Source of the DNA: a virus
Taxonomy: Duplodnaviria > Caudoviricetes
Virus record (IMG/VR): IMGVR_UViG_3300044260_000040
Location: 1 to 47,319 of that record
DNA: 47,319 bases
Direction: 5' to 3' (one strand)
The notes under the pieces were generated by a model. The model saw nothing but the letters and a program-made list of their open reading frames with translations, was not told the DNA's origin and searched no databases. Both the position numbers and the translations under genes were made by a program. Below, piece by piece: positions 9,447 through 46,398 of this stretch (its first letter is position 1; each line of letters starts with the position of its first letter).

Positions 9447-10436
9447 CTAGGCCACCACCAGCGCACTCGTCACGGGCGTCGTGCTCACGTACGCTTCCTC
9501 TTCGGTCGCGTCGTCCTGCGTGCCGTCCGGTGCCTTGTGCGCCATGTCGATGTACACGCCGCCGTCGATGACGTACACGTCGCCCAGCGTGTAGCAGGTG
9601 TCGCAGATGATGCCCTCGGGATAGTCGCCGTCTCGCGAGCGGTCGATAATCTTGAGGGCGGTGAGGTCGTGCCCATTGTGGCGGAACCGATACGGCCGGT
9701 CCACAACGCGCATCGAGCCCTTGTGCTTGCCCGCCTTGCGCTTGACCGTGCTCTGCGTGGTCGCGGTCACGGTGGCAGGCGTGCTCACGGCCGCCTTGTC
9801 CGACTGCTCTTGCGTGGTCGGCGTGTAGGCCCGTGTGGACTCGTACGGGCGCGGCACCCACGTGGACGGGGTGACGGCCGCGTATGGCTTGTGGTTGCTG
9901 GAGTACCAGAGGCCCCCATCCCACTTGCCCGACGTTTCCTGCAGGTTGACGGTCTCGGTCTCGGTCATCAAGACCAGCTTCGACCATCCGATGCTGCCGT
10001 TCACGAGGTAGCGCAGCGCGCCATCGCGCCACCACGCACTGGGCAGACGCGCCAGCACGTCGCGCACGAACACCTCGGTGTCCGACTCATCGGCCTTCGT
10101 CACGATGTCGATGACGCCGTTGTGAAAGACCAGCACCGGGCCTTCCTGCGGGTCCTCGTACATGTACGGGTGAGCGTGCGCTTGGTCCTCTGGACCGTGC
10201 GTCGCATAGCGGAAGTGCGCGACGTACTCGACCCCTGAGTGCTTGTCGAGGTCGCGCAGGAACTGAGCGAACTCGCGCTTCTCGTTAGGCGCGAACTTCG
10301 CGTAGCGCAGGCCCTCGTCCGTGCGCCATGCGGCCCCGAACCCGTCGGGGTGCCGCACCAACGCGGTGTCGATTACCTGCTGCGGGATGTTGCTCCCGCG
10401 CTCGCCCTTGACCGGGCGATGCGCAATCATGCACAC
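9447..10436 (-). CDS. Class II glutamine amidotransferase (Ntn hydrolase) with C-terminal CxxC domain
   Basis: GTG-TGC start gives Cys2. Motifs HPDGFG, AHFRYATHG, AHPY, FHNGVI, SDT; GGAG SD. Confidence 0.9.
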   Translation of the reverse strand: MCMIAHRPVKGERGSNIPQQVIDTALVRHPDGFGAAWRTDEGLRYAKFAPNEKREFAQFLRDLDKHSGVEYVAHFRYATHGPEDQAHAHPYMYEDPQEGPVLVFHNGVIDIVTKADESDTEVFVRDVLARLPSAWWRDGALRYLVNGSIGWSKLVLMTETETVNLQETSGKWDGGLWYSSNHKPYAAVTPSTWVPRPYESTRAYTPTTQEQSDKAAVSTPATVTATTQSTVKRKAGKHKGSMRVVDRPYRFRHNGHDLTALKIIDRSRDGDYPEGIICDTCYTLGDVYVIDGGVYIDMAHKAPDGTQDDATEEEAYVSTTPVTSALVVA

Positions 10437-10491
10437 GTTGTGCAATGCTCCATTCTGCCGGATGACCGGCGGCTGCGGTGTGTAGGCGACC

Positions 10492-10520
10492 ATCATAGGG
10501 CCGCCGCGCGTTCCTGTCAA
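10492..10520 (-). promoter_or_regulatory. sigma70-type promoter TTGACA-17-TATGAT
   Basis: Near-consensus boxes with 17-nt spacer upstream of the GATase. Confidence 0.85.
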
Positions 10521-10535
10521 CCCCCTTGTGCTCTC

Positions 10536-10640
10536 GCGCACAACGTGCGCGTATGTACGCACGCGCACAAGGCGCGTACGTGTGTAGGCATGAGCGCACA
10601 GGGCGCGCGCTCACAGGTGCACGGACGCACAAGGCGCGTG
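10536..10640. repeat. GCGCACAAGGCGCG-type repeats at 31-bp spacing
   Basis: Copies at 10563, 10594 and about 10625, plus a degenerate palindromic copy at 10536. Confidence 0.7.
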
Positions 10641-10724
10641 CACGTGTGAGGGCGAGACCGCACACAACGGCTCAGGGGCCCAGCGCACTGCACTGGACCC
10701 CTATAGACCGCACCAGACTGTACC

Positions 10725-10985
10725 TTAGCGCACCGCTCCTCTCGCGACCGCAGCTTTCAGGTCGGCCACGGTATATGGGCGCGGCCGGTCCGCGATGCTC
10801 GCGCGCCCGCTATCCAGTGACGCCGCGCGCAGCATGCCCGCTTGCGCGCGACGCACCCACGGGCTCGCGGCGCATCGCTCGTGCACGAGCGTACAACGCC
10901 CGTCCGCACCCACGCTCAGGATGCGCGCGTCCTCGGTGTACGCGATGGGCGCGAAACACCGGCCGCATGAACCCCGGTCACTCAT
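10725..10985 (-). CDS. Small Zn-finger-like protein
   Basis: CGRCFAPI...LVHERC. Confidence 0.55.
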   Translation of the reverse strand: MSDRGSCGRCFAPIAYTEDARILSVGADGRCTLVHERCAASPWVRRAQAGMLRAASLDSGRASIADRPRPYTVADLKAAVARGAVR

Positions 10986-11338
10986 GCTTCACCGCCCAGC
11001 ACGCCATCGTCCCAGAATGACGCATAGTCAACGCCTTCGGCGTCGCGCTCAGAGGCGATGCAGTCCTCGCCGTAGCGCGGCGGGATGCCGCTATCGTGCT
11101 CGCGGATGACGCCGCCGCACGTGCCGCAGGCGAGGATGTGCATGCCGGGCTCGCTCGGCTCGCACCACTCGTCCCACGAGAAGATGGCGCCGGGCCCGTT
11201 GCCCTCGGAGTCTCGCGTGCAGCACGCCACGAACCCGTCCGCACAACGCCCGAAGCGCGCCTCTGCGCAGGCCGGGCAGTGCGTGTCCGCGTCGTACGTG
11301 TACGCGATTGGTCGCGGGTCGCTGTTGAGATACGGCAT
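10982..11338 (-). CDS. Cys-rich hypothetical protein
   Basis: AYTYDADTHCPACA...ACGTCG; AGGAAGG SD. Confidence 0.65.
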   Translation of the reverse strand: MPYLNSDPRPIAYTYDADTHCPACAEARFGRCADGFVACCTRDSEGNGPGAIFSWDEWCEPSEPGMHILACGTCGGVIREHDSGIPPRYGEDCIASERDAEGVDYASFWDDGVLGGEA

Positions 11339-11343
11339 GTCTG

Positions 11344-11601
11344 CTACCTTCCTGTCGTGTAGAGTGTGGTCCAGATGCGGTTGAGTGCGGTTAGGGGCTT
11401 TCCGCTGGTGCGGTAGCCGTGCTCGTGCTTGGCGTGCGGCAGGCGCACAAGGTGCTTGGGCACGTTGCGGTGCACGCCATACGAGCGCTTGCGTCCGCAT
11501 GCCGCACAACGCTTGGGCCCGATTGCGGGCTCGTCGTATGCGTGCGCCTCGGGCAGAACCGTGATTGTGTGGTGTCGATTGCTGCGGTTACGAGTAGTCA
11601 T
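11344..11601 (-). CDS. Small basic Cys/His protein
   Basis: H...CAACG...H; GGAGG SD. Confidence 0.6.
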   Translation of the reverse strand: MTTRNRSNRHHTITVLPEAHAYDEPAIGPKRCAACGRKRSYGVHRNVPKHLVRLPHAKHEHGYRTSGKPLTALNRIWTTLYTTGR

Positions 11602-11656
11602 TGCTGGCACCCTCCGTCACTGAACAGGCCAAAGCTCACCAGAACTGCCAAGAGGC

Positions 11657-11686
11657 AGGCTAACCACACCAGAGTCACCTTGTCCA
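11657..11686 (-). promoter_or_regulatory. Candidate promoter TGGACA-18-TAGCCT
   Basis: Preceded by AAGGGG, like the 10520 promoter; lies upstream of the 11601 gene. Confidence 0.5.
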
Positions 11687-11705
11687 CCCCTTTCGCTGGA
11701 TGGCC

Positions 11706-11728
11706 GACCGGCGGTCCGGCCGCCGGTC
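11706..11728. terminator. 9-bp GC hairpin downstream of the amidoligase (no U tract)
   Basis: GACCGGCGG-TCCGG-CCGCCGGTC. Confidence 0.4.
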
Positions 11729-11853
11729 CTCGCGCGGAGCGCTCACGAGAGCGCATTCCCGCGCCTTGTGCACTCGCTGCATGTGCAGCCGGTGCGTCGT
11801 GCTCAGGCGCCCAAGGCGCACGTTGTACGTGACGTGTGAGGCTCGGTTCGGCG

Positions 11854-12921
11854 TCATTCCACACCACCTGTCGCCGCAAGGCGGCCAGCGAAGCGCTCGC
11901 GGATGAACGCGAGCAGGGCCGGGTACTCGGTCGGGCGCTGCTCGCACCAGTGCACGAACGCGCTGACCTGCGGGACGTTCGCCGCGTCGCGAGTGAACTC
12001 GACCATGGCGGCCGTCCACTCCAGCTTGGCGAAGAAGCGGTCCACCCGTAGGGTGCCGCGAGGAAGGCGGAACTCAATCCGCCCTCTGTTCTGAGCGTTC
12101 AGGACCGTGTAGCGGTCCTGCGAGGCGTATCCCCACGCGAACACCTGCTGCGCCCATGTGCGCCGCCGGTCGGCCGTGGACAACGCGTCGAAGCGCGCCC
12201 AGTGCGACATGCTCTCGTGAGTGCGCTGCGCCATGCGAACGCTCCAGCGCGGATTGGCGCACACCAGAGCGGCGAACCGCTCCAGATGCGAAGCATCTGC
12301 GAAGGCGTCCGTGCCGATGTTGACGTGCAGGCCGCAGGTGTCGCCGTCGTGGCTGCGGACCCCGCCGTGGAGCAGGCTGCGGAACATCTCGGAGAGATGC
12401 GGCTTGGCGGCCTGCCAGTAGGCCAGCGTAGCTGGCTGCGACGCGAACTCGGGCCCTGAGACGCTGCCGTCATGCTTCGCATGCCAGAGGCCACGAGGCG
12501 AGGCCATGCTCACGGCCTCATCAGCCGACATGTCGCCTTCGGCGGTCCAACGAGCCTGCTGCCGGGCCCTGTAGGCCCGGTTCCTGCGGTCCCACGCTGC
12601 ATACTCGCGCTCGGCCTGCATGTAGCGGGCCCGCTCGTCCTCGTTCGCGTTGTACGGCAGGTACGGCAGGTTCACCCTGCCGGGCAGGTCTCGGAAGCGG
12701 CGTTGCGGGACGGCCGTCTCAAGCTCCACACCGAAGGTGGGAGCGGCGGTGCCAGCAATCTGCTCGGCTGTCGTCCTACGGACGGTCCAGCCGCCTCGTG
12801 GCTGTGACGAGTACGAGTGAATGGTCCCGGCCCGAACGGAGTTCGGGAGGCCCTGCTTGCGCTTGCAGGGCTCGCATGTACAAGAGGCCATATCGGCTAC
12901 GCCGACCTGTTCCTCGCTCAC
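11854..12921 (-). CDS. Putative amidoligase (Amidoligase_2 / COOH-NH2 ligase fold)
   Basis: FGVELE, KHDGSV..PEF.SQP, CGLHVNI, RY..LN, IEFRLPRGTL; AAGGAG SD before GTG. Confidence 0.88.
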   Translation of the reverse strand: MSEEQVGVADMASCTCEPCKRKQGLPNSVRAGTIHSYSSQPRGGWTVRRTTAEQIAGTAAPTFGVELETAVPQRRFRDLPGRVNLPYLPYNANEDERARYMQAEREYAAWDRRNRAYRARQQARWTAEGDMSADEAVSMASPRGLWHAKHDGSVSGPEFASQPATLAYWQAAKPHLSEMFRSLLHGGVRSHDGDTCGLHVNIGTDAFADASHLERFAALVCANPRWSVRMAQRTHESMSHWARFDALSTADRRRTWAQQVFAWGYASQDRYTVLNAQNRGRIEFRLPRGTLRVDRFFAKLEWTAAMVEFTRDAANVPQVSAFVHWCEQRPTEYPALLAFIRERFAGRLAATGGVE

Positions 12922-12977
12922 TGCGCTCTCCTTCGGAGCTGCACCGGCCTTCGCCGTCTGGCGTCGTGCCGGACTCC

Positions 12978-13005
12978 AGCATCGGCCCGGCTGCCCGGAT
13001 GTCAA
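12978..13005 (-). promoter_or_regulatory. Candidate promoter TTGACA-16-GATGCT
   Basis: Perfect -35 upstream of the amidoligase; weaker -10. Confidence 0.55.
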
Positions 13006-13088
13006 GTGCACCGAACCGCACCAGACCGCTCAATCGCGAAGGAATGTGGTGCGGCGTGGCACCAGCCTCGTGCGCGCGTCTCTCGCGC

Positions 13089-26900: not shown

Positions 26901-29520
26901 CGCAGAGCGCGCCACGTATCAGGACGCGCTTGACGGGCTCACGGAGTGGAGCACCCTGCGCAGGCAGGCGTACATCGCGACAGGTCGCATTCTGGACGAC
27001 CGGGAGTTGGGCCTGCGGTACATTCAGGAGATGTTCAGCGACTCCATGGGCGCGACGCTGGAGCCGGATGGGCTCATCAAGTACGCCGAGAGCATCAAGA
27101 CTGGCGTGTATCACAAGCCGACCAGCGTCGGGCAGATGCGGTCGCTCCAGCTTGACGACCTCGCGGCCCAGTTGGGCTACATCACGGAGCGCGGTGCGGG
27201 CGACATCTCCGCTCTGGCGAAGGCTGTCGGGCCCGAGGGCGACCGGTCTATGGGGTGGCTGGAGGAGCGGCTGCGGGAGGACTTCGGAGCGCACCCGGAC
27301 TACACTCAGCGCGCCATCCGCGCTCTGGGCTTCAACTGGAACGACTACTGGGCCGAGGCTCGCGCCACTCTCGACGTGAGCCCGAAGCAGGCCGAGTTCC
27401 TGCAGGGCGTCATCGCGCGCGAGGCGCAGCTTCGTGACATGAACCCGGTCGAGTATCTGTCGCAGGTGCTGGACTTCAACCTCGGGCGCGTCGGCTCCAA
27501 CGCCCACATGCGCCAGCTTCTGCAGCTTGTGCAGGCGTCCTCGGTGGGCGACAAGGCAGCGCAGGTCGAGAAGCTGTCGCAGATATTCGTCAGGACGCTC
27601 GACCCGTCTGCACAGCGCGTGGTGCTCGCCAACTACATGGCCGACCTGCCGCGCCAAATCCGCGACGCCGAGGCGCTTGGCACGGACGCGGGCCGCGCAA
27701 CTGCCGCGCAACTGCGCGACATCCGCACTCGCCTGAATGGCGAGGTGCTTGGCACGACCGGCGAGCACGCCGTGTCCGAGGCCATCGCCCAGAACCTTGA
27801 CGAGTTCAAGGCTTTCCACAACAACGACATCGCCGGAGTGGTCCACGTGACCGTTCCCACGGAGCAGGATGTCCACTACGCCAACTTCGTGGACGGTGCG
27901 TTCGACACCATCCCGAACCGAGCGGCCGTGGACGAGGCGTTCAACCTCATCGACTCCCTGATGCGCCAGTTCCCGAACACGAACCTGCGGCACGTCGGCC
28001 TGCGTGACCTCGCCGGTCAGGGGTGGGCGGCCGTGGACGGTACGGAGGATGGCGCTCCGGTCCTGTTCCTAGACCACAAGATGTTCGAAGAGGCGGGCGC
28101 TGGTAACTTCGCGGGCGAGATGGCGGCGAGCGACGCGTGGCGCACTGGCGGGCCCATCGACACGCGGTGGTCGTATCCCGGCGTGCCAAGCGCCGTGTCC
28201 TCTGGGCTGCGCGCCAACATCTACCACGAGTTCGGCCACATCGTTGCTGACAGCCTGCTCAACGCGAGCGCGATGAGCCCGGCTGAGCTTGACCGCATCG
28301 CCCCTCTCTCCGACTTCGTGCGTGCGTTGACCGCGCAGGACAGCAACTTCCCGGCGATGCTGAGCGAGTACGCCGCCATCCCCAAGGACGAGGTGGCGGG
28401 CGGCGACCTGCAGGAGTTCGTGGGCGAGTTGTTCGCAGCGGCGTACGACCCGGGCGTGGACCTCGCGCGCTGGCCGGAAGCCTTCCGGGCTGAGCTTCAG
28501 GACACCGCCGAAGAGTTCCGTGGCATCCTGCAGGACATCGGTGAGTTCAACCCGCCGCAGGTCCCGAACATCACGGCTCTCGACGCGCCCACGCGCGACG
28601 CGCTCGGGAGCGGATTTGCGGACCTTGTGCGCAGGCGCATGGCGGGCGAGAAGATTGCCGACGGCGACGTTGAGGCAGTGGCCCGCCACTTCGCCAACTG
28701 GACGCAGAACGCCGTTGCGGCGGCAGTGGCCGACCACCTCCAGACCTCGCGTCAGTGGATTGGCGAACTGGCGATGGAGATTGCCGACCGCATCCCGACG
28801 GATGGCGGCTTCGCCTACAGCCGCACGCAGGGACTCGTAGAGCAGCTTCTCCACCAGAAGATTGAGATGGCTCAGCGCGACGCCTACCGGCTGGCCGAGA
28901 TGTCCACGACGCGCTCGTGGCTCGACCGCTCGCTGAACCACCCGGTCTTCGGCCTGTACCCGTCGAGCTACATGTGGGGCAAGACGTTCCCCGAGACCGT
29001 GAAGTTCTTGTCCAAGGAACCGTTCGGCTTTGAGACTGGCGTCCTGCTCTACCAGATGATGCGGGCGGAGCACCAAATCACGACGCAGCGCGAGTACGAC
29101 CCGAAGTTCTCCACCATGTGGAACCAAGTCGGTGGCAGCGAGACGGCCTTCCTGCTCGACTACCTGACCCCGGGCCTGCCGTGGAGCGACATGCGAGCGG
29201 CCACACCGCCGTGGGCGCAGTCCATCGCGAAGAACGGGCTCGACCCGATGAAGCTCCTGAACGCCGAGGCCGCCACCATCTCTCCTGAGCGCTGGTATCG
29301 CAGTGCGGTACAGTCCGGTCAGGAAGTGGGCGGAGCGGCGCAGTCTGCGATAGACTCCCTCGTCAATCCCAAGCCCGCCCAATCGACAAGTGGCGGGAAC
29401 GGTCTCTTCCAGTTGCCATCCGGTACGAGCGCGACACCTGAGCCCACCACCCCGGCGGGCGTGTTGCAGCCGAAGTTGTCGTCCGCCATGGACGACCTGA
29501 AGAACATGCTCGCCCCGTGA
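23959..29520 (+). CDS. Giant virion protein (1853 aa), putative ejection protein with inserted zincin metallopeptidase domain
   Basis: Ala/Gly-rich hydrophobic segments; IYHEFGH (nt about 28219-28239), then LSEYA and EFVGELF. Confidence 0.65.
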   Translation: MSDPFQLPASGGAAPAAQPVQEMQSTLFGGGAPAQSKGPNLGPVNDLLGFAAGAASVVGGALARVPLGWLPNGADDQFKQMGDWMKVNRPEDYKQWETVNAASNADKLYGGNMKSDFNREWGTKYLDESKTGGGVAPELAFAPASLMGALGDVVPRLALTEKNVEQTLGGQTYFNPLEGTKAITDTTRAPSEMVDRVGVVLAASQRGDQLNPVEQEVVKNLQEGTWDRQHALDYLIRNNQGYSRDVLPQTVMQIVADPMMIAGGGEAAALKIGARGLRVAEALGATEKAAAAGRAATAGEVFGAAGEARAIDKVAVSVAALQRTPLAPVFKVGRAIVDPLGAIQGRDTATKAGLDLLTGSGVRATEQAYGPAAYSAAFDFARKHGITSELQSALGGYTDNGVRQWTILQSRVTQLLADTGGERLLETTPDSLVTELMKVEPKDSIARLTTYFSGVKKPFITAEDDAQLADRLTASFGKDAATWAEDIAKMTPDTKSLLHAATYENSWQQFADALAHVENYTGRIPINNFVILNDNILDNVAAQLFAREFNAPGLGVAERAKLWNDAASRWVELRDIGLAEQSPIQMTDLSERLTKLIESGRLHTRIQLEALREDPALQPIADWLEAQSINGRQVWNVGFRPDDMHAWGFVRNPNTGLLEAGSTPFVSHVMDATPAYLPVNDVLTNLLGQVIGPAAAGKLAKPVEAMEVAYKVARDQISGTRLLQNMEQRFVVKAGRDYNLSVAQSRRLFRLGRDAAQLQHTTIQGIDPTNIWESISKALPKELQGQVTKRQYMDLLMHASAGDLRVMGLTQGFTQRIRNLIQSKLGYQEGNFAGRATVSFYREVRYGLNPLFYIQRITDGQYFNILKGIPWIGYHDFKPGTALYDAQQVLGVLGETATARDMAMDLPEYTLRSNFQQAIRSRLGNMVDSAKLEDLATAGARWQRNNQTATFNAALGDIVKESLDESRKAFEALAKDETLTAAERATYQDALDGLTEWSTLRRQAYIATGRILDDRELGLRYIQEMFSDSMGATLEPDGLIKYAESIKTGVYHKPTSVGQMRSLQLDDLAAQLGYITERGAGDISALAKAVGPEGDRSMGWLEERLREDFGAHPDYTQRAIRALGFNWNDYWAEARATLDVSPKQAEFLQGVIAREAQLRDMNPVEYLSQVLDFNLGRVGSNAHMRQLLQLVQASSVGDKAAQVEKLSQIFVRTLDPSAQRVVLANYMADLPRQIRDAEALGTDAGRATAAQLRDIRTRLNGEVLGTTGEHAVSEAIAQNLDEFKAFHNNDIAGVVHVTVPTEQDVHYANFVDGAFDTIPNRAAVDEAFNLIDSLMRQFPNTNLRHVGLRDLAGQGWAAVDGTEDGAPVLFLDHKMFEEAGAGNFAGEMAASDAWRTGGPIDTRWSYPGVPSAVSSGLRANIYHEFGHIVADSLLNASAMSPAELDRIAPLSDFVRALTAQDSNFPAMLSEYAAIPKDEVAGGDLQEFVGELFAAAYDPGVDLARWPEAFRAELQDTAEEFRGILQDIGEFNPPQVPNITALDAPTRDALGSGFADLVRRRMAGEKIADGDVEAVARHFANWTQNAVAAAVADHLQTSRQWIGELAMEIADRIPTDGGFAYSRTQGLVEQLLHQKIEMAQRDAYRLAEMSTTRSWLDRSLNHPVFGLYPSSYMWGKTFPETVKFLSKEPFGFETGVLLYQMMRAEHQITTQREYDPKFSTMWNQVGGSETAFLLDYLTPGLPWSDMRAATPPWAQSIAKNGLDPMKLLNAEAATISPERWYRSAVQSGQEVGGAAQSAIDSLVNPKPAQSTSGGNGLFQLPSGTSATPEPTTPAGVLQPKLSSAMDDLKNMLAP

Positions 29521-38249: not shown

Positions 38250-38391
38250 GACGACGTTTGAGGAGCTTGTCCGGCTTCGGCTGGACGAGCTTGACAGGAA
38301 GCTGGAGCGGCTGCTTGAGATGACGTGCCCGGTTTGCGGACCGGCGCTGGTCGCGCAAATCCACCCCAAGGTGGAGGAGCATGGCAGCTAA
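38218..38391 (+). CDS. Small coiled-coil/CxxC protein (start uncertain)
   Basis: FEELVRLRLDELDRKLERLLEMTCPVCG; fills the gap before the fibre gene. Confidence 0.4.
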   Translation: MLPTSTSTTPETTFEELVRLRLDELDRKLERLLEMTCPVCGPALVAQIHPKVEEHGS

Positions 38392-41086
38392 CCCCGGTGT
38401 CATCGTTGCGTATGGCGCAGCTACAGCGCCGACGGGGTGGCTTCTCTGCGACGGCTCGGCCGTCTCACAAGCCACCTACGCCGCCCTGTACGCAGCCATC
38501 GGGACGGACTTCGGGCCAGACACGGGCGGCAACTTCACGCTGCCCGACTACCGGGGGCGCTTCGCTCTAGGCAAGTCCGCGACGGGCACGGGCTCGACCG
38601 TCGGTGAGACGGGTGGCGCACTCGACCACACGCATACCGGCCCCTCGCATACCCACGCTGTGGACCAGCCTGCGGACCATACGGCGCACACGGTCACGCA
38701 GCCGTCCTCGCACGGCACGCTGACGCATACCGGCGCGGCAATCGCGAACCACTCGCTCATGTCGCACACGGGCGCAGTCGTGGCCGCCCACTCCATCACC
38801 GAGGCATCTGCGCACTCGGACCACGCCTCTGGTGGAGCGCACACACACGACGGCCACGTCAGCGGCACCCGAAACCCAAGCGCCAACCCCGGCTTCTTCA
38901 CCGCGCCGACCGGGGCGCATAGCTCGGACGGCGGCCATACACACGATGCGCACAGCGCGCATACGGGCACGACCATCGACTCCGGCGCCGCTCACTCGGT
39001 GACGCAGGCAGCGGACCACTCGGCCGACACGCACACCATCTCGGCGCAGGCTACCTCCCACGGCACGCTCACGCACTCAGGCATGACGGTCACTGGCGCG
39101 CACTCGCACACGGGCATGGCGACGCAGGCAGGCGGGACGGCAGCCAGCGGTGGGGCGAACCCGCCGTTCCAAGTCGTGACCTTCATCATCGCCGTCGGCA
39201 CGACCGAGATACCAGTCGGCGCCATCAGCGACTTCGGCGGCACGAGCGCCCCGACTGGGCACATCATCTGCGACGGCTCGTCTTACAACACGACGACCGA
39301 TGCCGACCTGTTCGCTGTCATCGGGTACAACTTCGGCGGCTCTGGCGCAAACTTCAACGTGCCCGACCTGCGCGACCGCCACCCGCTCGGCAAGGCAGCA
39401 GCCGGGACTGGCTCGACTATCGGGGCGACCGGTGGCGCGGTGAACCACGTTCACGCTGGCCCGTCGCATACGCATACCGTGACGCAGGCCGATGCGCACG
39501 GCTCGCATACCATCGGTCAGGCGTCGAGCCACGGCACGCTGACGCATACAGGAACGACGGTCTCCGACCACGCAGCCCTGTCGCACTCCGGCTTGGCGCT
39601 TGGCAACCATACGGTCGGGCAGCCCGCCACGCACTCGACACACGCCACGAACGCGACACACACACACAACTCCCACACGAACGTCAGCAAGTACGGCAAC
39701 GGCACCGACAATGCAGGCTGGATGCACAGCCCGACTACGCACTCGGGCGATGGCGCGCACACACACGATGCTCACCCGGCGCACACGGGGCAGGCGCTCG
39801 ACGCGCACAGCGTCACAGCGCAGAACTCCAACCACGCCGCGCAATCGCATAGCCTGCTCATCACAGAGGCGTCGTCGCACGGCACGCTGAACCACACGGG
39901 CGCGGACCTTGACGCGCACTCCGCCCACTCGGGCGGGGCGACGAGCGCGGGCGGGACGGGCAACACGAGCGCTGGAGAGGCGCCGTACCTGACCGTCAAC
40001 TTCATCATCAAGGCGCACGAGGAGCCGACGCCTATCGGTTCCGGCTTCATGCTCGGCAGCATGGCCGTTCCCTCGCTGGCGCTGGCGTGTGACGGAGCGT
40101 CGTATCTGCGGGTCGATTACCCGTACCTGTTCGCCGTCATCGGGACGGCCTTCGGGGCGGCCGACAGCGACCACTTCAACGTGCCCGATATGCGCGGTCG
40201 CATCCCGCGCGGCAAGAGCGCATCTACCGCCCTGAACGACTCGGGCGGCGCGCGCGACCACACGCACACTGGTCCGCTCCATAGCCACGGCGTGACACAG
40301 CCGTCTGCCCACTCCGACCACACGCCGACGCAACCGACCAGCCACGGCACGCTGACCCACAGCGGCTTCGCCTTGTCAGACCACGCCGCCCTGAGCCACT
40401 CGGGGCTGACCATCGCGAACCACACGCCGACTCAGGCTGGCCTGCACGGCACGCACTCCACGGACGGCGCGCATACCCACGATGCGCATACGGCACAGAA
40501 CAAGATGGATGCTGGCTCGACCAACTACCTGAAGGCGAGCACGCATAGCAGCGACGGCGGCCATACGCACGACGCGCACTCCGCGCATACGGGCTTCGCG
40601 GTCAACGCGCACAGCATCACGTCGGCAGGCTCGGACCACGCTGCGCGCTCACATACGGTCTCGGCGCAGCCAGACAGCCACGGCACGCTCACGCATAGCG
40701 GCTTCGCCGTGGATGCGCACTCCGCGCACAGCGGCTTCGCCACGTACGACGACGGCAACGGCACGATGGGCGCGGCCAACCCGGCCTACATCACCGTCAA
40801 CTACGCCATCTGGGCCATCGGCTTCGACCGCAGCGGCACGTCCTCGGGGACTGGCGGCGGCGTCGTGACCATCACGCAGACCACGAGCCGGGAGCCCAGT
40901 GAGACGTTCACTGGCGGTGGCGTCGCCAGCATCACGCAGACCACGGACCGCCAGCCCAGTGAGGACATGACCGGGGGCGGCGTCCTCGGTTACACTGGTG
41001 CCAAGGGTGGGACAGGGACGGTGCACCTGTCCGACGGCGGCGGGACCGGCATCTCAGGCACGACTACGTTCGGGTGGGCAGCATGA
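38381..41086 (+). CDS. Tail fibre with three tandem collar + His-rich needle modules
   Basis: Three collar motifs (CDG.......LF/Y.AIG..FG....F..PD.R.R...G), each closed by P(F/Y)..V.(F/Y)(I/A)I; about 28 His per module. Confidence 0.9.
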   Translation: MAANPGVIVAYGAATAPTGWLLCDGSAVSQATYAALYAAIGTDFGPDTGGNFTLPDYRGRFALGKSATGTGSTVGETGGALDHTHTGPSHTHAVDQPADHTAHTVTQPSSHGTLTHTGAAIANHSLMSHTGAVVAAHSITEASAHSDHASGGAHTHDGHVSGTRNPSANPGFFTAPTGAHSSDGGHTHDAHSAHTGTTIDSGAAHSVTQAADHSADTHTISAQATSHGTLTHSGMTVTGAHSHTGMATQAGGTAASGGANPPFQVVTFIIAVGTTEIPVGAISDFGGTSAPTGHIICDGSSYNTTTDADLFAVIGYNFGGSGANFNVPDLRDRHPLGKAAAGTGSTIGATGGAVNHVHAGPSHTHTVTQADAHGSHTIGQASSHGTLTHTGTTVSDHAALSHSGLALGNHTVGQPATHSTHATNATHTHNSHTNVSKYGNGTDNAGWMHSPTTHSGDGAHTHDAHPAHTGQALDAHSVTAQNSNHAAQSHSLLITEASSHGTLNHTGADLDAHSAHSGGATSAGGTGNTSAGEAPYLTVNFIIKAHEEPTPIGSGFMLGSMAVPSLALACDGASYLRVDYPYLFAVIGTAFGAADSDHFNVPDMRGRIPRGKSASTALNDSGGARDHTHTGPLHSHGVTQPSAHSDHTPTQPTSHGTLTHSGFALSDHAALSHSGLTIANHTPTQAGLHGTHSTDGAHTHDAHTAQNKMDAGSTNYLKASTHSSDGGHTHDAHSAHTGFAVNAHSITSAGSDHAARSHTVSAQPDSHGTLTHSGFAVDAHSAHSGFATYDDGNGTMGAANPAYITVNYAIWAIGFDRSGTSSGTGGGVVTITQTTSREPSETFTGGGVASITQTTDRQPSEDMTGGGVLGYTGAKGGTGTVHLSDGGGTGISGTTTFGWAA

Positions 41087-42126
41087 CCTACGGACTCGTG
41101 ATGATTGCCAAGGACGAGGCGGCGGGCATCCTTGGCACGCTGGAGACTCTTCGCCCGTTCATCTCGTACTGGATTGTCTGCGACACGGGCTCTACGGACG
41201 GCACGCAAGACCTCATCCGCGAGTACCTGAAGGACATCCCCGGCAAGCTGTATCAGGACAAGTGGGTCAACTTCGGGCACAACCGCTCGCTCGCTCTCGC
41301 GCGCGCGTACAAGGCACGTGAGCGCGTGGACTGGTGGCTGGCGTCCGACGCCGACATGCACTGGACCATCGACCCGACGTTCACGCCGCCGCAGGTAGAG
41401 TCGCTGAGCCTCAAGATGGGCGCGGGCAGCGGCTTCGAATGGCGCCTGCCGCTGGTGCTGCGGGCGGACATCGAATGGAAGTCCGTCGGCGCGGTGCACG
41501 AGTACACGACACGCATGGACGGGCAGAAGCACGTGTCGCTCGCGACGGACAAGCTGAGCGTCATGTACCAAGACCGCAGCGACCCGGCCAAGACAGCGTG
41601 GCAGTTGGGCATGCTGCGCGAGGAGATGGAGAAGGACCCCGACAACAGCCGGACCGTCTTCTACGCGGCGCAGTGCTCGCGCGAGCTAGGCGCGTACGCG
41701 GATGCGCGCGCCTTGTACGCGCGTAGGGCGCAGATGGGCGGGTACGAGCAGGAGCGCTGGTACGCGATGTACTGGGCGGCTCAGTTGGAGGAGACGCCGG
41801 ACGCGCGCCTGCTTGCGCTCATCGCCTGCTGGGAAGCGCGCCCTGCCCGGCTGGAACCGCTGTGCTTGGCCGCGAGAGAGATGAACGCACGCGGCTGGCA
41901 CCATGCTGCCTATGCCCTGCTCAACCGTCCCATCCAGCCCACGGACGACGTGTTCTTCGTGCACACGACCGTCTGGGAATGGGGCATCGACTTTGAGAAG
42001 CACATCGCAGCGTGGTGGGTCGGCAAGCGCAAAGAGTCTGCGGACCTTGGGCGCAAGCTCCTGAAGCGCAAAGACCTGCCGGACCACATTCGGCTCGCCA
42101 TCGAAGCCAACCTTAAGTACACGTGA
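41083..42126 (+). CDS. Glycosyltransferase family 2 with TPR C-terminus
   Basis: MIAKDE, CDTGSTDGT, W.NFG.NR, DAD, GAVHEY, R.VFY.AQ. Confidence 0.92.
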   Translation: MTYGLVMIAKDEAAGILGTLETLRPFISYWIVCDTGSTDGTQDLIREYLKDIPGKLYQDKWVNFGHNRSLALARAYKARERVDWWLASDADMHWTIDPTFTPPQVESLSLKMGAGSGFEWRLPLVLRADIEWKSVGAVHEYTTRMDGQKHVSLATDKLSVMYQDRSDPAKTAWQLGMLREEMEKDPDNSRTVFYAAQCSRELGAYADARALYARRAQMGGYEQERWYAMYWAAQLEETPDARLLALIACWEARPARLEPLCLAAREMNARGWHHAAYALLNRPIQPTDDVFFVHTTVWEWGIDFEKHIAAWWVGKRKESADLGRKLLKRKDLPDHIRLAIEANLKYT

Positions 42127-42463: not shown

Positions 42464-42828
42464 ATATCACCTTCGACTGGGCCGACTTCTCCGCCCCCCT
42501 TGACCCGGCGGTCCTCGTCGCTGCTATTCTCCTCGGTTGCATGCTCGGCGCTGTGGTGGCGTTCAGCGATGGGTCGCGACGGCGACGGCTCAGTACCAAC
42601 CACTTCATCTGGATGACGGGCGCAGGCGTGGTATTCTACATCCCTCTCAGCATCATCCGCGCATTCGAAGGCTCGCCCGTGTGGGAGCGGTTCCTCGCGA
42701 CCCTGCCACTCTGGATGCTGTTCGAACTGGGGATGATGCTGGGCAACAGATACATGACGCGCGGGGACCGCACGGCATCTGCGGCAGAGCGCAAGCAGTG
42801 GGACGACGAGGGGAAGAATGGTTCTTGA
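42460..42828 (+). CDS. 3-TM membrane protein, putative holin
   Basis: Three hydrophobic segments, charged C-terminus, overlaps the endolysin start. Confidence 0.6.
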   Translation: MNITFDWADFSAPLDPAVLVAAILLGCMLGAVVAFSDGSRRRRLSTNHFIWMTGAGVVFYIPLSIIRAFEGSPVWERFLATLPLWMLFELGMMLGNRYMTRGDRTASAAERKQWDDEGKNGS

Positions 42829-44212
42829 GGGAGTCGATGTCTCCGTCTTCAACGGACTCTGGAGCGGGAAGGAACGACCCGCTTTCGCCATCGTGCGCGC
42901 GTGCTACGGCACGGGCAAGGATGCGAAGTACGACCTGCACGTCGCACGCTTCAAGTCGCTCGGCATCCTGACAGGAGCGTACGCCTTCGGCATCAACATG
43001 AACGGCACCGCTCAGGCGCGTGCCTTCCTGACCATCGCCAAGAACGCGGCCTTCATCGCGCTGGACTTGGAGACCGAGGCAGCCAAGCCGCGCATGACGG
43101 ACGAGCAGGCCAAGGCGTTCATCGCTGAGTGCCACCGGCAGGGCCGCAAGGTCGGGCTGTACCACAGCCGCAGTGGCTTCCCCCTCACGCTCGGGCAGGA
43201 CTGGAACTGGGTGGCCGACTATCGTGGACCGGCGTACAAGCCGAACATCCCGTTCGCCATCTGGCAGTGGCAGGGCAGCCCGCTCGACCGCAACCACTTC
43301 TACGGCACGAAGGCGCAGTTGGTCGCGCTCGGAGCGCCGTACGGCGCGCCCGTTACCCCTCCGCCGCCCCCGCCTGTCCAGACCGGCAACCCATATCCCA
43401 TCGGGTCGATTGAGTCGGTCCAGTGGTATCACGACCACGGCTTCATCTCGCAGGGCGGCGTGTGGGTGAAGGTGTCCACTCCACCTCCTGCTCCCACGCC
43501 CACCACGCCCCCGCCTGCACCGGTCCCGGCAGCGCCGCCCATCCCCACGACGCCTACCTCCGTGGGCGCGAACGTGGGTCAGGTGACGTACGCCCTGCCG
43601 CGCATGGTCGTGCTCGCGGGCCTGCAGGCGCTGGACCTCGGGCCGACGAACGGGCCTGTCTACGTCCTCGTGCACGGCGGGCCCGTCCCGCTTGGCAACG
43701 CGGCCATGCTACAGGACCTCGCGCAGCGGCTCGCCAATCGCGGCGCTCGCGTGTTCTGCATCGACTATCGCTCGGACACGTGGCAGAACGCGGTCGCTGA
43801 TGTGACCGCAGCCGTGGCCGACGTGAAGCGCATCATCCCGGCGCGCGTGACGCTCGTCTCGCACAGCTATGGTGGCTTCCCGGCGGCCATCGCGTTCTTC
43901 CAGAACGCGGCAGCCGACGCCTACGTGGCCGTCAACGCCATCTGCTCGACCCCTGCGGTGAGCGAGAACAGCCGGGCGGGTGCGCCCGACATCTTCGAAC
44001 TGACGAAGCTGCGGCCGGGAGCGCCGGTCAGCGTGGTCGAGGGGATGACGATGCCCTATCCCGCGACCGACGACAAGCCGGGCTTCGTGCGAGCGCTCAA
44101 TGCCGCCGGGCATCCCGGCTTCTGGACTCAGGGCCCGGGCGACCACACGGGCACGTTGTACACTAGTGAGACCGTCGGCACCATCATGCAGACGGCCGCG
44201 CTCATCAGGTGA
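42818..44212 (+). CDS. Endolysin: GH25 muramidase, Pro-rich linkers and alpha/beta-hydrolase domain
   Basis: GVDVS, GAYAF, ALDLE, WVADY, IWQW, LDRN; then LVHGG, IDYR, SHSYGG, GDH. Confidence 0.88.
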   Translation: MVLEGVDVSVFNGLWSGKERPAFAIVRACYGTGKDAKYDLHVARFKSLGILTGAYAFGINMNGTAQARAFLTIAKNAAFIALDLETEAAKPRMTDEQAKAFIAECHRQGRKVGLYHSRSGFPLTLGQDWNWVADYRGPAYKPNIPFAIWQWQGSPLDRNHFYGTKAQLVALGAPYGAPVTPPPPPPVQTGNPYPIGSIESVQWYHDHGFISQGGVWVKVSTPPPAPTPTTPPPAPVPAAPPIPTTPTSVGANVGQVTYALPRMVVLAGLQALDLGPTNGPVYVLVHGGPVPLGNAAMLQDLAQRLANRGARVFCIDYRSDTWQNAVADVTAAVADVKRIIPARVTLVSHSYGGFPAAIAFFQNAAADAYVAVNAICSTPAVSENSRAGAPDIFELTKLRPGAPVSVVEGMTMPYPATDDKPGFVRALNAAGHPGFWTQGPGDHTGTLYTSETVGTIMQTAALIR

Positions 44213-44223
44213 GGTAAGCCATT

Positions 44224-44559
44224 ATGGCAGCCCCAGCCGCGCCGGTCATCAGCGTCATGCAGAACGGCTACGGCATGGTCTACATCAACTGGGCCGCCGT
44301 CGCAGGCGCGACCTCGTACAAGGTGTATGAGGGGCACTCGACCGCCCCCACGACCCTGAAGGCAACGGTCACGACACCGCTGTCGGACGGCACCTTCGGC
44401 TACATCTTCATGGGCACGGGCACAGAGTTCGTGCGCCTGAAGGCCAACAACCTGAGCGGGGATAGCGCGTACGGAAACGAGGTGCGCGTAGCAATCAGCA
44501 TCGGTCGCCTGCCGACGAAGGGTTCATCGCAGGCCCTCCAGCACATCAAGGGGACTTGA
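44224..44559 (+). CDS. Fibronectin type III-like protein
   Basis: PAAP, INWAAVAGATSYKVY, LKA.N.SGDS. Confidence 0.75.
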   Translation: MAAPAAPVISVMQNGYGMVYINWAAVAGATSYKVYEGHSTAPTTLKATVTTPLSDGTFGYIFMGTGTEFVRLKANNLSGDSAYGNEVRVAISIGRLPTKGSSQALQHIKGT

Positions 44560-44561
44560 CC

Positions 44562-45026
44562 ATGGGTTCAATCGTCGCAAGCGAACTTCTGAACGGCGTT
44601 AGTGGGGCCAACGCCACAGCCATCGACACAGACACAGGGGCGAGGTTCAACAAGTCCTACGCCAAGGAATGGCTCGCCACGCAAATCATGGACAGCGACG
44701 GGGCGATGCTCGACCTGTACATCGCCGGAGACCCGGGCGCCTACACGGACGAGATGCTGCTCGCAGAGGCGCAGTTGACGGACTGCAACGATGCCTGCTC
44801 GCCCGCGTTCTTCGAACGCATCCGAGACTACTCGGGCTTCGTCATCGCGGTCCACCCGGGGCCCATCGTCAACACGTGGAGTGAACTCATCGCCACGCTG
44901 AACGACATCAGCAACTGGTCTGTTCCCTACGTCAGCGACGCGGACATCTGGGCCGGGCTGCGTGGAGCGAGCGGCCCCTCGGGGACCAACACGTTCGTCA
45001 CGGAAGCTGAGATTGCGGTCGCCTGA
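44562..45026 (+). CDS. Hypothetical protein
   Basis: AAGGGG SD; coding-like codon bias. Confidence 0.65.
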   Translation: MGSIVASELLNGVSGANATAIDTDTGARFNKSYAKEWLATQIMDSDGAMLDLYIAGDPGAYTDEMLLAEAQLTDCNDACSPAFFERIRDYSGFVIAVHPGPIVNTWSELIATLNDISNWSVPYVSDADIWAGLRGASGPSGTNTFVTEAEIAVA

Positions 45027-45029
45027 TAC

Positions 45030-45114
45030 GGGCCCGCGTAGACGAGGTGAAGGGCCCGCCGGAAGGCGGGCCCGTTAGCCTAACGAGGGGTGCGACTCCC
45101 CTCCGGGTCCACCA
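45030..45114 (+). ncRNA. tRNA-like RNA with Ala identity (G3.U70, A73, CCA) and no anticodon loop
   Basis: Acceptor stem GGGCCCG/CGGGTCC + ACCA; T arm GAGGGG-TGCGACT-CCCCTC; 9-bp hairpin with GGAA loop; short variable hairpin GTTA-GCC-TAAC. Confidence 0.7.
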
Positions 45115-45115
45115 C

Positions 45116-45757
45116 CTACCAGCGGCGGGCGGCCTTGACATCAGCGATGATGCGGTCAGGGTCGCCCGCTGCGCCTTTGTACTGCTCAATCCAGTCGGGC
45201 TTGACCGCGCCCTCCATCGTCTCCTCCGGCTTCCGCGTGTGTTCGAAGGCGACGATGGTGCCCTGAACTGCGTGGAAGGGAGCGATGGCGCGGGCCAGCC
45301 CGAGGAACGCAGCGTCCTCCCAGCCCCAGTCCGTGAAGCGCTCGTCCCACCCGCCCATGCGTTCGAACAAGGCGCGCGCGATGGCGAGGTTGCCGCTGTT
45401 CATCACCGGCCCGGTGCACACGCGGGGCACAGACTGGCCGGTGTACGGGTTCATGCTCAGGAAGCGCGTGTACGGCTGGACAAGGCTCTCATCCTCGGCG
45501 GCCATGCGCACTGCCTCTCGCAGTTGCGCGGGCGGGATGTAGGTGTCCGCGTCGTTGAACACCAGCACGTCCACATCGCCCGCCATGACGGCGGCGCGAT
45601 TGCGCGCTTGGCACAGGTTGAATGGGAGGTCGGGGTCGCTGTCTCCGACGCATACGGTGTAGCCCTCCCGGGCGAGGCCGGTCTGGACTTGCGCCCAGAT
45701 GGCCTCGCGGGAGGGGACGCCGCCGCGCCAAGGCACGCAGACGGCGAAGGTGGTCAT
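45116..45757 (-). CDS. Glycosyltransferase (GT2 / galactosyltransferase C-terminal-like)
   Basis: VCVPWR, FN..QARN, VFNDADT, GGWDERF.DWGWED. Confidence 0.9.
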   Translation of the reverse strand: MTTFAVCVPWRGGVPSREAIWAQVQTGLAREGYTVCVGDSDPDLPFNLCQARNRAAVMAGDVDVLVFNDADTYIPPAQLREAVRMAAEDESLVQPYTRFLSMNPYTGQSVPRVCTGPVMNSGNLAIARALFERMGGWDERFTDWGWEDAAFLGLARAIAPFHAVQGTIVAFEHTRKPEETMEGAVKPDWIEQYKGAAGDPDRIIADVKAARRW

Positions 45758-46398
45758 CGGTGGCGGCCCTCAGTGACCTCGGACCAGCCGCCACCCGGGT
45801 CCCAGATGCGCGGCGGGCGAAGCCAGCCTCGCTCCAGCATGGCGTCGTACATGTGCCAGTGGCTGTGCACGTCAGACATGACGCGCTGCGCCGTCTTGCA
45901 CAGGCCCTCCGGCGTGAGGCGGTTGGCCTCGCGCCAGTCTCGCTGTGACATGTGGCGCTTCTCGACAGCGATGCCGATGGGACAGGTCGGCTGAAGCTGC
46001 TCCAGCAGGAACTCCTGCGTAGCAGGAACGTCTGCCTTCACGAACATGTCTAGCTTGGTATCGTGCGTGCGCTTCGACCCAAGCATGGGCATGTCCAACT
46101 CGTACAGTGCGCCATTGATGATGGGCAAGTCGTGCTTGCGAATGTAGTGCCCGGTCACAAGGTCGGCCTGCTCGTACACCTGCAGGAACTGCTCCAGCAG
46201 GCGCACAGGGCCGTCCTCGCCGGGCTCCAGCAGAGCCACAGTCAGCGAGTCGTGGTCGCCATGCCACATCCACGCGATGGCCGTGATTTCGGCGGTGGGC
46301 CGGTCCGCCATCCAGTAGGACAGCGGTCGATTTTCGATGTCGAAGTCAAGGATGCGAGTCTCCCGCGCATCTGGCGGGAAGAACTCATGCGCCAGCAT
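45754..46398 (-). CDS. RNase H-like (DnaQ/PolB-type) 3'-5' exonuclease
   Basis: LDFDIE (ExoI), TGHYIRKHDLP (ExoII), HDT, SDV (ExoIII). Confidence 0.8.
   Translation of the reverse strand: MLAHEFFPPDARETRILDFDIENRPLSYWMADRPTAEITAIAWMWHGDHDSLTVALLEPGEDGPVRLLEQFLQVYEQADLVTGHYIRKHDLPIINGALYELDMPMLGSKRTHDTKLDMFVKADVPATQEFLLEQLQPTCPIGIAVEKRHMSQRDWREANRLTPEGLCKTAQRVMSDVHSHWHMYDAMLERGWLRPPRIWDPGGGWSEVTEGRHR

Follow-up and report, generated by a model that had tools for sequence, protein, structure and literature searches.

What lies between the two converging gene arms of this phage genome? The window, that is, the whole stretch of DNA analyzed (47,319 bases), is a complete-looking sediment-phage genome with a terminal overlap of 127 bases and a G+C content of 65.8%, assembled as a single contig at a depth of 31 with no variants listed. 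Terminase, portal, capsid, tail-collar, and GH25 lysin genes lie on the + strand and a nucleotide-metabolism arm lies on the − strand. No close cultured relative was found, and the best capsid matches were 27–36% identical. Where the late (+) and early (−) arms meet, the convergent stop codons leave a gap of 89 bases: a TGA stop (45024–45026) is followed after 3 bases by an element at 45030–45114, then by 1 base and the opposing TAG stop (45116–45118), the element filling the gap. These positions, proposed in the first-pass annotation for an alanine-identity tRNA mimic, were confirmed from the sequence and the open reading frames (ORFs). The features around the gap are:

44224..44559, + strand, 111-aa ORF with a weak PHROG tail-protein match
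44556..45026, + strand, 156-aa ORF upstream of the element, no family; last gene of the late arm
45030..45114, + strand, whole putative tag-less tmRNA-like RNA gene (tRNA-like domain only), 85 nt, from its fold and a match to model R1
45116..45757, − strand, convergent glycosyltransferase gene (family 2/galactosyltransferase; PF10111, E 7.7e-7; phrog_1721, E 3.5e-27); last gene of the early arm
45754..46398, − strand, exonuclease-like gene (phrog_403, E 4.9e-9; 2228 homologs)

The RNA is probably co-transcribed with the 156-aa ORF. Elsewhere in the window, the early arm carries glutamine amidotransferase class II and amidoligase genes near each other (9447–13011, − strand; weak Pfam matches), and another glycosyltransferase is encoded at 41074–42126. 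A 901-aa protein (38381–41086, + strand) has three tail-collar domains with long His-rich repeats between them, and the lysin (42818–44212, + strand) joins a GH25 muramidase to an alpha/beta hydrolase domain via a proline-rich linker.

Fold of the element

The minimum free energy (MFE) fold of the 85-mer reaches −52.8 kcal/mol (z = −4.07), a value equaled by none of 200 shuffles; the opposite strand of 45030–45114 is unremarkable (z = −1.43). It comprises a 7-bp acceptor stem with a G3.U70 pair (45032/45108), A73, and an encoded CCA; a T stem of 6 bp that carries a 7-nt loop; and a 9-bp hairpin with a GNRA loop, all of which had been drawn in the first-pass annotation. The parts of the element are:

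45030..45036, + strand, 5′ strand of the acceptor stem (G1, G2, and G3; G3 = 45032); 7/7 pairs with 45104–45110, probability 0.99 in the 85-mer
45037..45044, + strand, shortened, stem-less D loop of 8 nt; same 8 bases in an 85-nt IMG/VR family, one base longer in related phage G004
45040..45041, + strand, AG elbow; 45042, A15-like; 45043..45044, C18/G19-like (E. coli numbering inferred, aligned by eye)
45045..45081, + strand, interrupted helix in place of tmRNA helix 2, probabilities 0.96 and 1.0
45082..45084, + strand, connector ending in AC (45083 is A334-like, by eye); AC in 16/16 short-loop representatives and 20/20 full-length genes described below
45085..45103, + strand, T arm with a 6-bp stem, a 7-nt loop (45091–45097), and a G51–C63 pair; 19 bases identical in full-length genes L312 and L316
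45104..45114, + strand, 3′ strand of the acceptor stem (U70 = 45108), A73 (45111), and encoded CCA (45112–45114), read from the sequence

From the D loop to the three-base connector, the central arm forms a single helix with an interruption: 4 bp (45045–45048/45078–45081), an internal loop, and a 9-bp GC hairpin (45052–45073) capped by the GNRA loop (45061–45064). A short variable hairpin proposed at 45074–45084 did not survive, since its pairing probability in the 85-mer is 0.0 and 45045–45048 pairs with 45078–45081 instead (0.96); the interrupted-helix fold has an energy of −52.7 kcal/mol versus −47.9 for the variable-hairpin fold. What had been taken for that hairpin is thus the 3′ strand of the helix that leads up to the GNRA hairpin, an arrangement matching tmRNA helix 2. 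The unpaired D-like region described earlier is present as an 8-nt loop with an AG elbow, but the GG assigned to it sits within the helix.

When the element was folded in 11 flank contexts, the 9-bp hairpin formed with probability 1.0 in every one and the acceptor stem with 0.62–0.99 in nine; in the other two the acceptor stem was outcompeted (0.01 and 0.04). An alternative pairing of 45028–45037 with 45066–45075, raised in the first-pass annotation as a possible competitor, had a computed probability of 0.0 in 11/11 contexts and does not dominate. A search rule for the general features (7/7 acceptor, G3.U70, ACCA, and a T arm), written after the element had been seen, is matched once in the window and in none of 500 dinucleotide resamples. 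There is no reading frame within the element: it is a closed 85-nt unit, and the stop of a coding gene begins at the next base but one.

Standard detectors, which the first-pass annotation had suggested running, are silent here. ARAGORN reported 0 genes in the window, with no tmRNA or tRNA call at the element, and Rfam gave no call at gathering level there or elsewhere in the window. Weak Rfam matches far below their cut-offs (Tymovirus tRNA-like, 15.1 bits; tRNA-Sec, 15.8 of 47) were set aside. Canonical tRNA and tRNA-Sec were rejected, as the D stem and the anticodon arm are missing, and so was full-length tmRNA (RF00023/RF04321), RF04321 (tmRNA_permuted) scoring 7.5 bits against a cut-off of 47. 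A scan for intrinsic terminators, defined as a GC hairpin plus a U run and so excluding the U-less terminators of high-GC hosts, found 0 sites in 44000–46000 on both strands. Both this result and the lack of conservation of the strong central hairpin among relatives speak against the terminator role once suggested for the element.

Probable kinship with tag-less tmRNAs

The element is very probably a tRNA-like-domain-only (tag-less) tmRNA, of a kind already known in print from mycobacteriophage DS6A. The DS6A element, which we located at 28478–28560 of JN698994, is catalogued as a "TLD only" (CDS-less) tmRNA in the tmRNA Website (tmID 11587; PMC4131195, PMC11915505). The two papers, citing Mao 2009, report that the DS6A form acted as a tmRNA inhibitor in E. 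coli and that the same effect was obtained with a similar molecule, chargeable or not, perhaps through titration of SmpB (PMC4131195, PMC11915505). Both elements are phage-borne, intergenic, and of like size (83 nt in DS6A, 85 here), and share a 7-bp acceptor with G3.U70 and A73, a stem-less D loop, a hairpin-closed interrupted helix in place of the message, an AC-ending connector, and a T arm. They differ in the D loop (13 nt and canonical in DS6A; 8 nt without the YYGA end here), the T stem (5 versus 6 bp), the T loop and elbow (UUC with GG versus UGC with AG), and the 3′ end (CUA versus an encoded CCA). The earlier description of an RNA with alanine identity and no anticodon, resembling tmRNA's tRNA-like domain, is supported and can be sharpened to this kind.

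The closest T arms are found in full-length genes. A search of bacterial genomes for the 6-bp T arm type gave 20 matches, all of them 345–404-nt genes with a tmRNA-type 5′ half; ARAGORN called 9 of the 20 as tmRNA and missed 11. These 6-bp-T-stem forms of one-piece tmRNA (RF00023) come from Bacillota, Limnochordia, Planctomycetota, and Gammaproteobacteria genome bins. They share G3.U70, A73, and CCA with the element; besides the T arm identity of L312 and L316, the D loop of L315 starts with the same five bases. In contrast, the element has no mRNA-like domain, pseudoknots, or tag, its D loop is 8 rather than 11–12 nt, and Rfam does not match it. Among tmRNA-like genes of 345–404 nt, mostly with a 6-bp T stem, ARAGORN made no call at L306, L309, L310, L313–L316, L319, L321, L324, and L325, nor at the further genes L007, L011, L030, L047, L269, L281, and L290.

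Tag frames are also missing from CDS-less organellar tmRNAs (mitochondrial RF02544; the ~65-bp plastid genes of Mallomonadaceae), which consist of a tRNA-like domain as here and which are described as thought still to assist with incomplete mRNAs (PMC11915505). Unlike the element, they are organellar, usually permuted, and served by their own SmpB; the element has no RF02544 match.

The first-pass annotation had compared the T loop with that of the staphylococcal non-proteinogenic tRNA-Gly species, whose T loop departs from the standard. This analogy is not needed: the same T loop is present in 20/20 of the full-length tmRNA-sized genes, and it covaries with the AG elbow. Hence the odd T loop and the 7 + 6 bp helix are features of tmRNA, requiring no non-proteinogenic tRNA. 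An A49–U65 pair is indeed common to the element and the staphylococcal tRNAs (PMC7826273), but the latter are full cloverleaves with anticodons and A51–U63, whereas the element has G51–C63, no D stem, and no anticodon. A non-proteinogenic tRNA was also rejected on its EF-Tu pairs, as the weak pairs described for such tRNAs (A51–U63 and U50–A64; PMC7826273) are absent and replaced by G51–C63 and G50–C64; G–C at 51–63 is given there as the high-affinity EF-Tu type.

We scanned IMG/VR with the T arm and 3′ end of the element. Among the 119 loci listed of about 430, many were two-piece tmRNAs with normal tags and others were closed units of 70–97 nt. Because the first patterns demanded U70, A73, and CCA, G3.U70 tallies obtained with them are partly true by construction, and an acceptor-free scan was run whose only specified parts were four D-loop bases, the connector, and the T arm. 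A 7/7 acceptor with G3.U70 and A73 was present in 83 of its 85 loci (39 of 41 distinct sequences), although these 83 loci make up about three sequence families and so represent few independent events; CCA is encoded in 73 of them and other ends in 10.

When 23 elements were aligned, 96.6% of cells were paired and two-sided changes affected 7 of 13 pairs, a level reached by none of 500 shuffles. Compensatory changes were seen in the acceptor and T stems, whose covariation the first-pass annotation had proposed to test; acceptor pairs 4–6 covary among relatives. The central arm spans 12–50 nt in the different families and is unrelated in sequence between them; within two families its opening pairs, those of helix 2, covary through compensatory changes. 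Ordinary tRNAs and cloverleaf-like sequences (L007, L030, L080, L088, L100, L102, L110, and L119) were removed before alignment, as were two-piece tmRNAs and the duplicated tmRNA copies L144/L155; one copy, L094, entered one tally unaligned. Model R1, built from 41 other elements, matched the window only at 45030–45114, with exact ends (52.7 bits, E 8.5e-9), its training set having been picked with patterns taken from the present element and so being not fully independent.

Other structured loci differ from this pattern or extend it. L394 and L399 carry a 6-bp T arm of the same type with another closing stem, without G3.U70 or CCA, and are another structured RNA. In one family (L125:3001–3081 on the − strand, L147, L169, L186) a 78–81-nt G3.U70 element of the present subtype lies in frame within a ~390-aa ORF that encodes a Pro/Ala/Val-rich linker and has no Pfam match; its 78- and 81-nt forms differ by one codon, so that frame and pairing are both kept, and the tRNA-like structure could lead to RNase P cleavage of that message. 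In L155, L172, and L144 (compare L018), a two-piece (permuted) phage tmRNA gene is partially duplicated in tandem, with the 5′ half before the acceptor piece. The duplication creates a closed 91-nt unit containing the tRNA-like domain only, a visible route by which elements of this kind can originate.

Shortened D loops and distribution among phages

We compared 24 representatives. Eight of them, including DS6A, have an 11–13-nt D loop with the canonical YYGA end; the other 16, including the present element, have an 8–11-nt D loop without YYGA, most of them having a four-base connector and many a 6-bp T stem (L367 was wrongly flagged as canonical by the regular expression used in this tally). 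Elbow and T loop covary in 24/24, AG occurring with T-loop GC and GG with T-loop UC; several representatives had been selected on one side of this pairing, but L328, L359, DS6A, and the Microbacterium copies had not. Similarly, several of the search patterns specified the AC of the connector, but L328 and L359 were retrieved with model R1 and the Microbacterium copies with blastn, in searches that did not include it.

How much of the SmpB site is left in such a loop? SmpB binding is stated to need contacts between the D and T loops (PMC3968760). As described for tmRNA, SmpB Trp122 contacts A15, U17, and A334, SmpB stacks on G19 and C18, and a G19C change abolishes function (PMC8363625). Aligned by eye, the element has candidates for A15, C18, and G19 (45042–45044) and for A334 (45083); U16–U17 and the YYGA end are absent. 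In the short-loop families a G is retained at the last or last-but-one position of the D loop, together with the AC-ending connector, and this retained G is the reason to think that SmpB still binds. Binding may instead be weak or lost, because U17, part of the Trp122 pocket (PMC8363625), is gone. The Microbacterium copies, in which a GG elbow is followed by three bases and a G, look transitional. What is new is a subtype with an 8–10-nt D loop lacking YYGA that retains candidates for the SmpB contacts G19 and A334. Our literature search, which covered few subscription journals, found no description of a widespread or short-loop phage class beyond DS6A; the tables of the tmRNA database itself may hold some of these sequences.

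A single-protein search for related viral loci gave no match, and the exonuclease-like gene served as the anchor for finding related phages. Its alignment yielded 32 loci, ten of which share at least six genes with the window, and we searched the whole records of nine of those ten and of six more distant phages. A version of the element is present in two of the nine, G003 and G004, in the same convergence zone of early and late genes. The G004 copy (101 nt) occupies the same convergence in the same orientation and has nearly the same D loop; it shows a compensatory acceptor change and a T stem that is different yet fully paired. The G003 copy (L328; 62 nt) lies directly before a tRNA-Met gene and has a GG elbow with a standard T loop. 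In another relative, L335, three tRNA genes occupy that slot, and only eight bases match the 3′ end of the L328 element. The element was not seen in seven of the nine records, two of which are under half complete, and R1 found no match in five genomes sharing little more than the exonuclease. Two R1 matches were dropped: G007 (18.4 bits), a tRNA-Trp, and G002 (23.1 bits), readable as a tRNA whose anticodon loop holds CAU. It follows from this patchy presence that the element is dispensable, optional cargo of the tRNA slot.

In L328, the homolog of the 111-aa ORF lies ~300 bases upstream of the counterpart of the element; in L335, it immediately precedes the tRNA genes. The cassette of small ORF and RNA (44224–45114 in the window, 9388–10091 in L328) points in the late direction here and in the early direction in L328, L335, and L332; these opposite directions would mean that the cassette was locally inverted, or inserted anew, at the convergence zone.

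With the copy from Microbacterium phage Vitas as query, 34 Microbacterium records matched, 16 of them over at least 71% of the query. Six of the seven records fetched carry an unannotated 91–93-nt G3.U70 element in a tRNA cluster (L216:1441–1531, L364–L367, and L369, from Microbacterium phages Vitas, Franklin22, Armstrong, Dismas, Celaena, and Bachaco); the seventh, Eula (L368), gave no parse. A different unannotated tRNA-like gene precedes lysin A in Mycobacterium phage Baehexic (L217:1440–1527): it has a D arm, no G3.U70, and an 18-base insert with a GNRA hairpin in place of the anticodon loop. It matches 12 records; the insert is longer in relatives, and one is annotated as tRNA-Leu.

Possible functions

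We lean slightly toward a mechanism linked to SmpB, in which the RNA competes with the host rescue-and-tag system; a decoy for SmpB is the best of the options listed in the first-pass annotation. The RNA would form the final part of the late transcript, to be excised by RNase P and 3′ trimming, as for tmRNA. AlaRS would charge it through G3.U70 and A73, SmpB would bind the elbow via the G19-like 45044 and the A334-like 45083, and EF-Tu would bind the acceptor–T helix. The element could then sequester SmpB, enter stalled ribosomes, or both, giving the chain one alanine and no tag; by competing with host tmRNA for SmpB and stalled ribosomes it would leave chains untagged for proteolysis. Beyond the fold, we infer all of these steps. 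As the DS6A-like molecule inhibited whether chargeable or not, charging would be unneeded for simple titration. The strict retention of G3.U70, which plain titration could do without in the DS6A-type experiment, suggests that charging matters.

A bolder reading, which we hold only tentatively and consider rather doubtful, is that the short-D-loop elements are a widespread phage RNA class with a rebuilt SmpB site, acting as tag-free ribosome-rescue RNAs. The alanine-charged RNA would enter a stalled ribosome with SmpB and EF-Tu, take the nascent chain, and free the ribosome, so that the phage protein would not be marked for destruction. Strict conservation of alanine identity points in this direction, and the role would resemble that proposed for mitochondrial tmRNA (PMC11915505).

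An unlikely alternative takes the element out of the SmpB pathway altogether, as an alanine-charged decoy soaking up defense enzymes directed at the acceptor end or the elbow of tRNA or tmRNA. Such a decoy would be immune to anticodon nucleases because it has no anticodon loop. Occupation of tRNA-gene slots fits this idea, as do the patchy presence in related phages, expected of host-dependent counter-defense, and the fact that the eroded part of the D loop is the SmpB-facing part; moreover, tmRNA is a predicted target of defense systems that contain SmpB-like domains (PMC11090510). However, a decoy for generic toxins of tRNA ends would need neither an invariant G3.U70 nor a tmRNA-type connector, and such a defense target has been shown for none of the carrier phages. 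Less probable still is that the element is solely a processing or stability signal in cis (t-element type), with RNase P cutting at G1 and the GC hairpin stopping or stabilizing the converging transcripts. The way it fills the gap between convergent stops would suit such a signal, and so would the equal position and orientation of the G004 copy at this convergence, the hairpin that forms fully in every context, and the family located inside a coding sequence. But RNase P does not need G3.U70 or A73, and both are conserved; the L328 and Microbacterium copies adjoin real tRNA genes that already provide a cut site, no terminator-like site was detected, and the strong hairpin is private to the present copy. 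Action in cis may occur as a side effect.

We give very little credence to a role outside the ribosome, as an alanine donor in the synthesis of cell wall, lipids, or peptides, analogous to that of the staphylococcal tRNA-Gly. Alanine identity without an anticodon and the A49–U65 pair speak for it, but G51–C63 and the whole T arm match full-length tmRNA-type genes, the layout is that of tmRNA rather than a cloverleaf, and no aminoacyl-tRNA-dependent transferase was found among the 31 window proteins scanned. Equally improbable is that the element is a relic without function, left by the decay of a tmRNA gene or attachment site that had been captured. Loss from most relatives, the 8-base remnant in L335, and the failure of both ARAGORN and Rfam to recognize the element are what a relic would predict; yet both halves are present and pair perfectly, no integrase was found among the proteins scanned, and the compensatory changes relative to the G004 copy and within families largely refute this reading.

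A tag-less tmRNA, very probably the identity of the present element, is a rarely catalogued object: the 2025 tmRNA database reports 9 one-piece genes without a coding part (PMC11915505). Pattern scans revealed dozens of distinct phage sequences missed by ARAGORN and Rfam. The short-loop subtype offers a natural mutational series for the requirements of SmpB binding, and the unannotated copies in cultured Microbacterium phages provide a ready, non-pathogenic test system. If these RNAs act on trans-translation, it would be common for phages to use a small RNA to disturb a quality-control system that is essential to bacteria.
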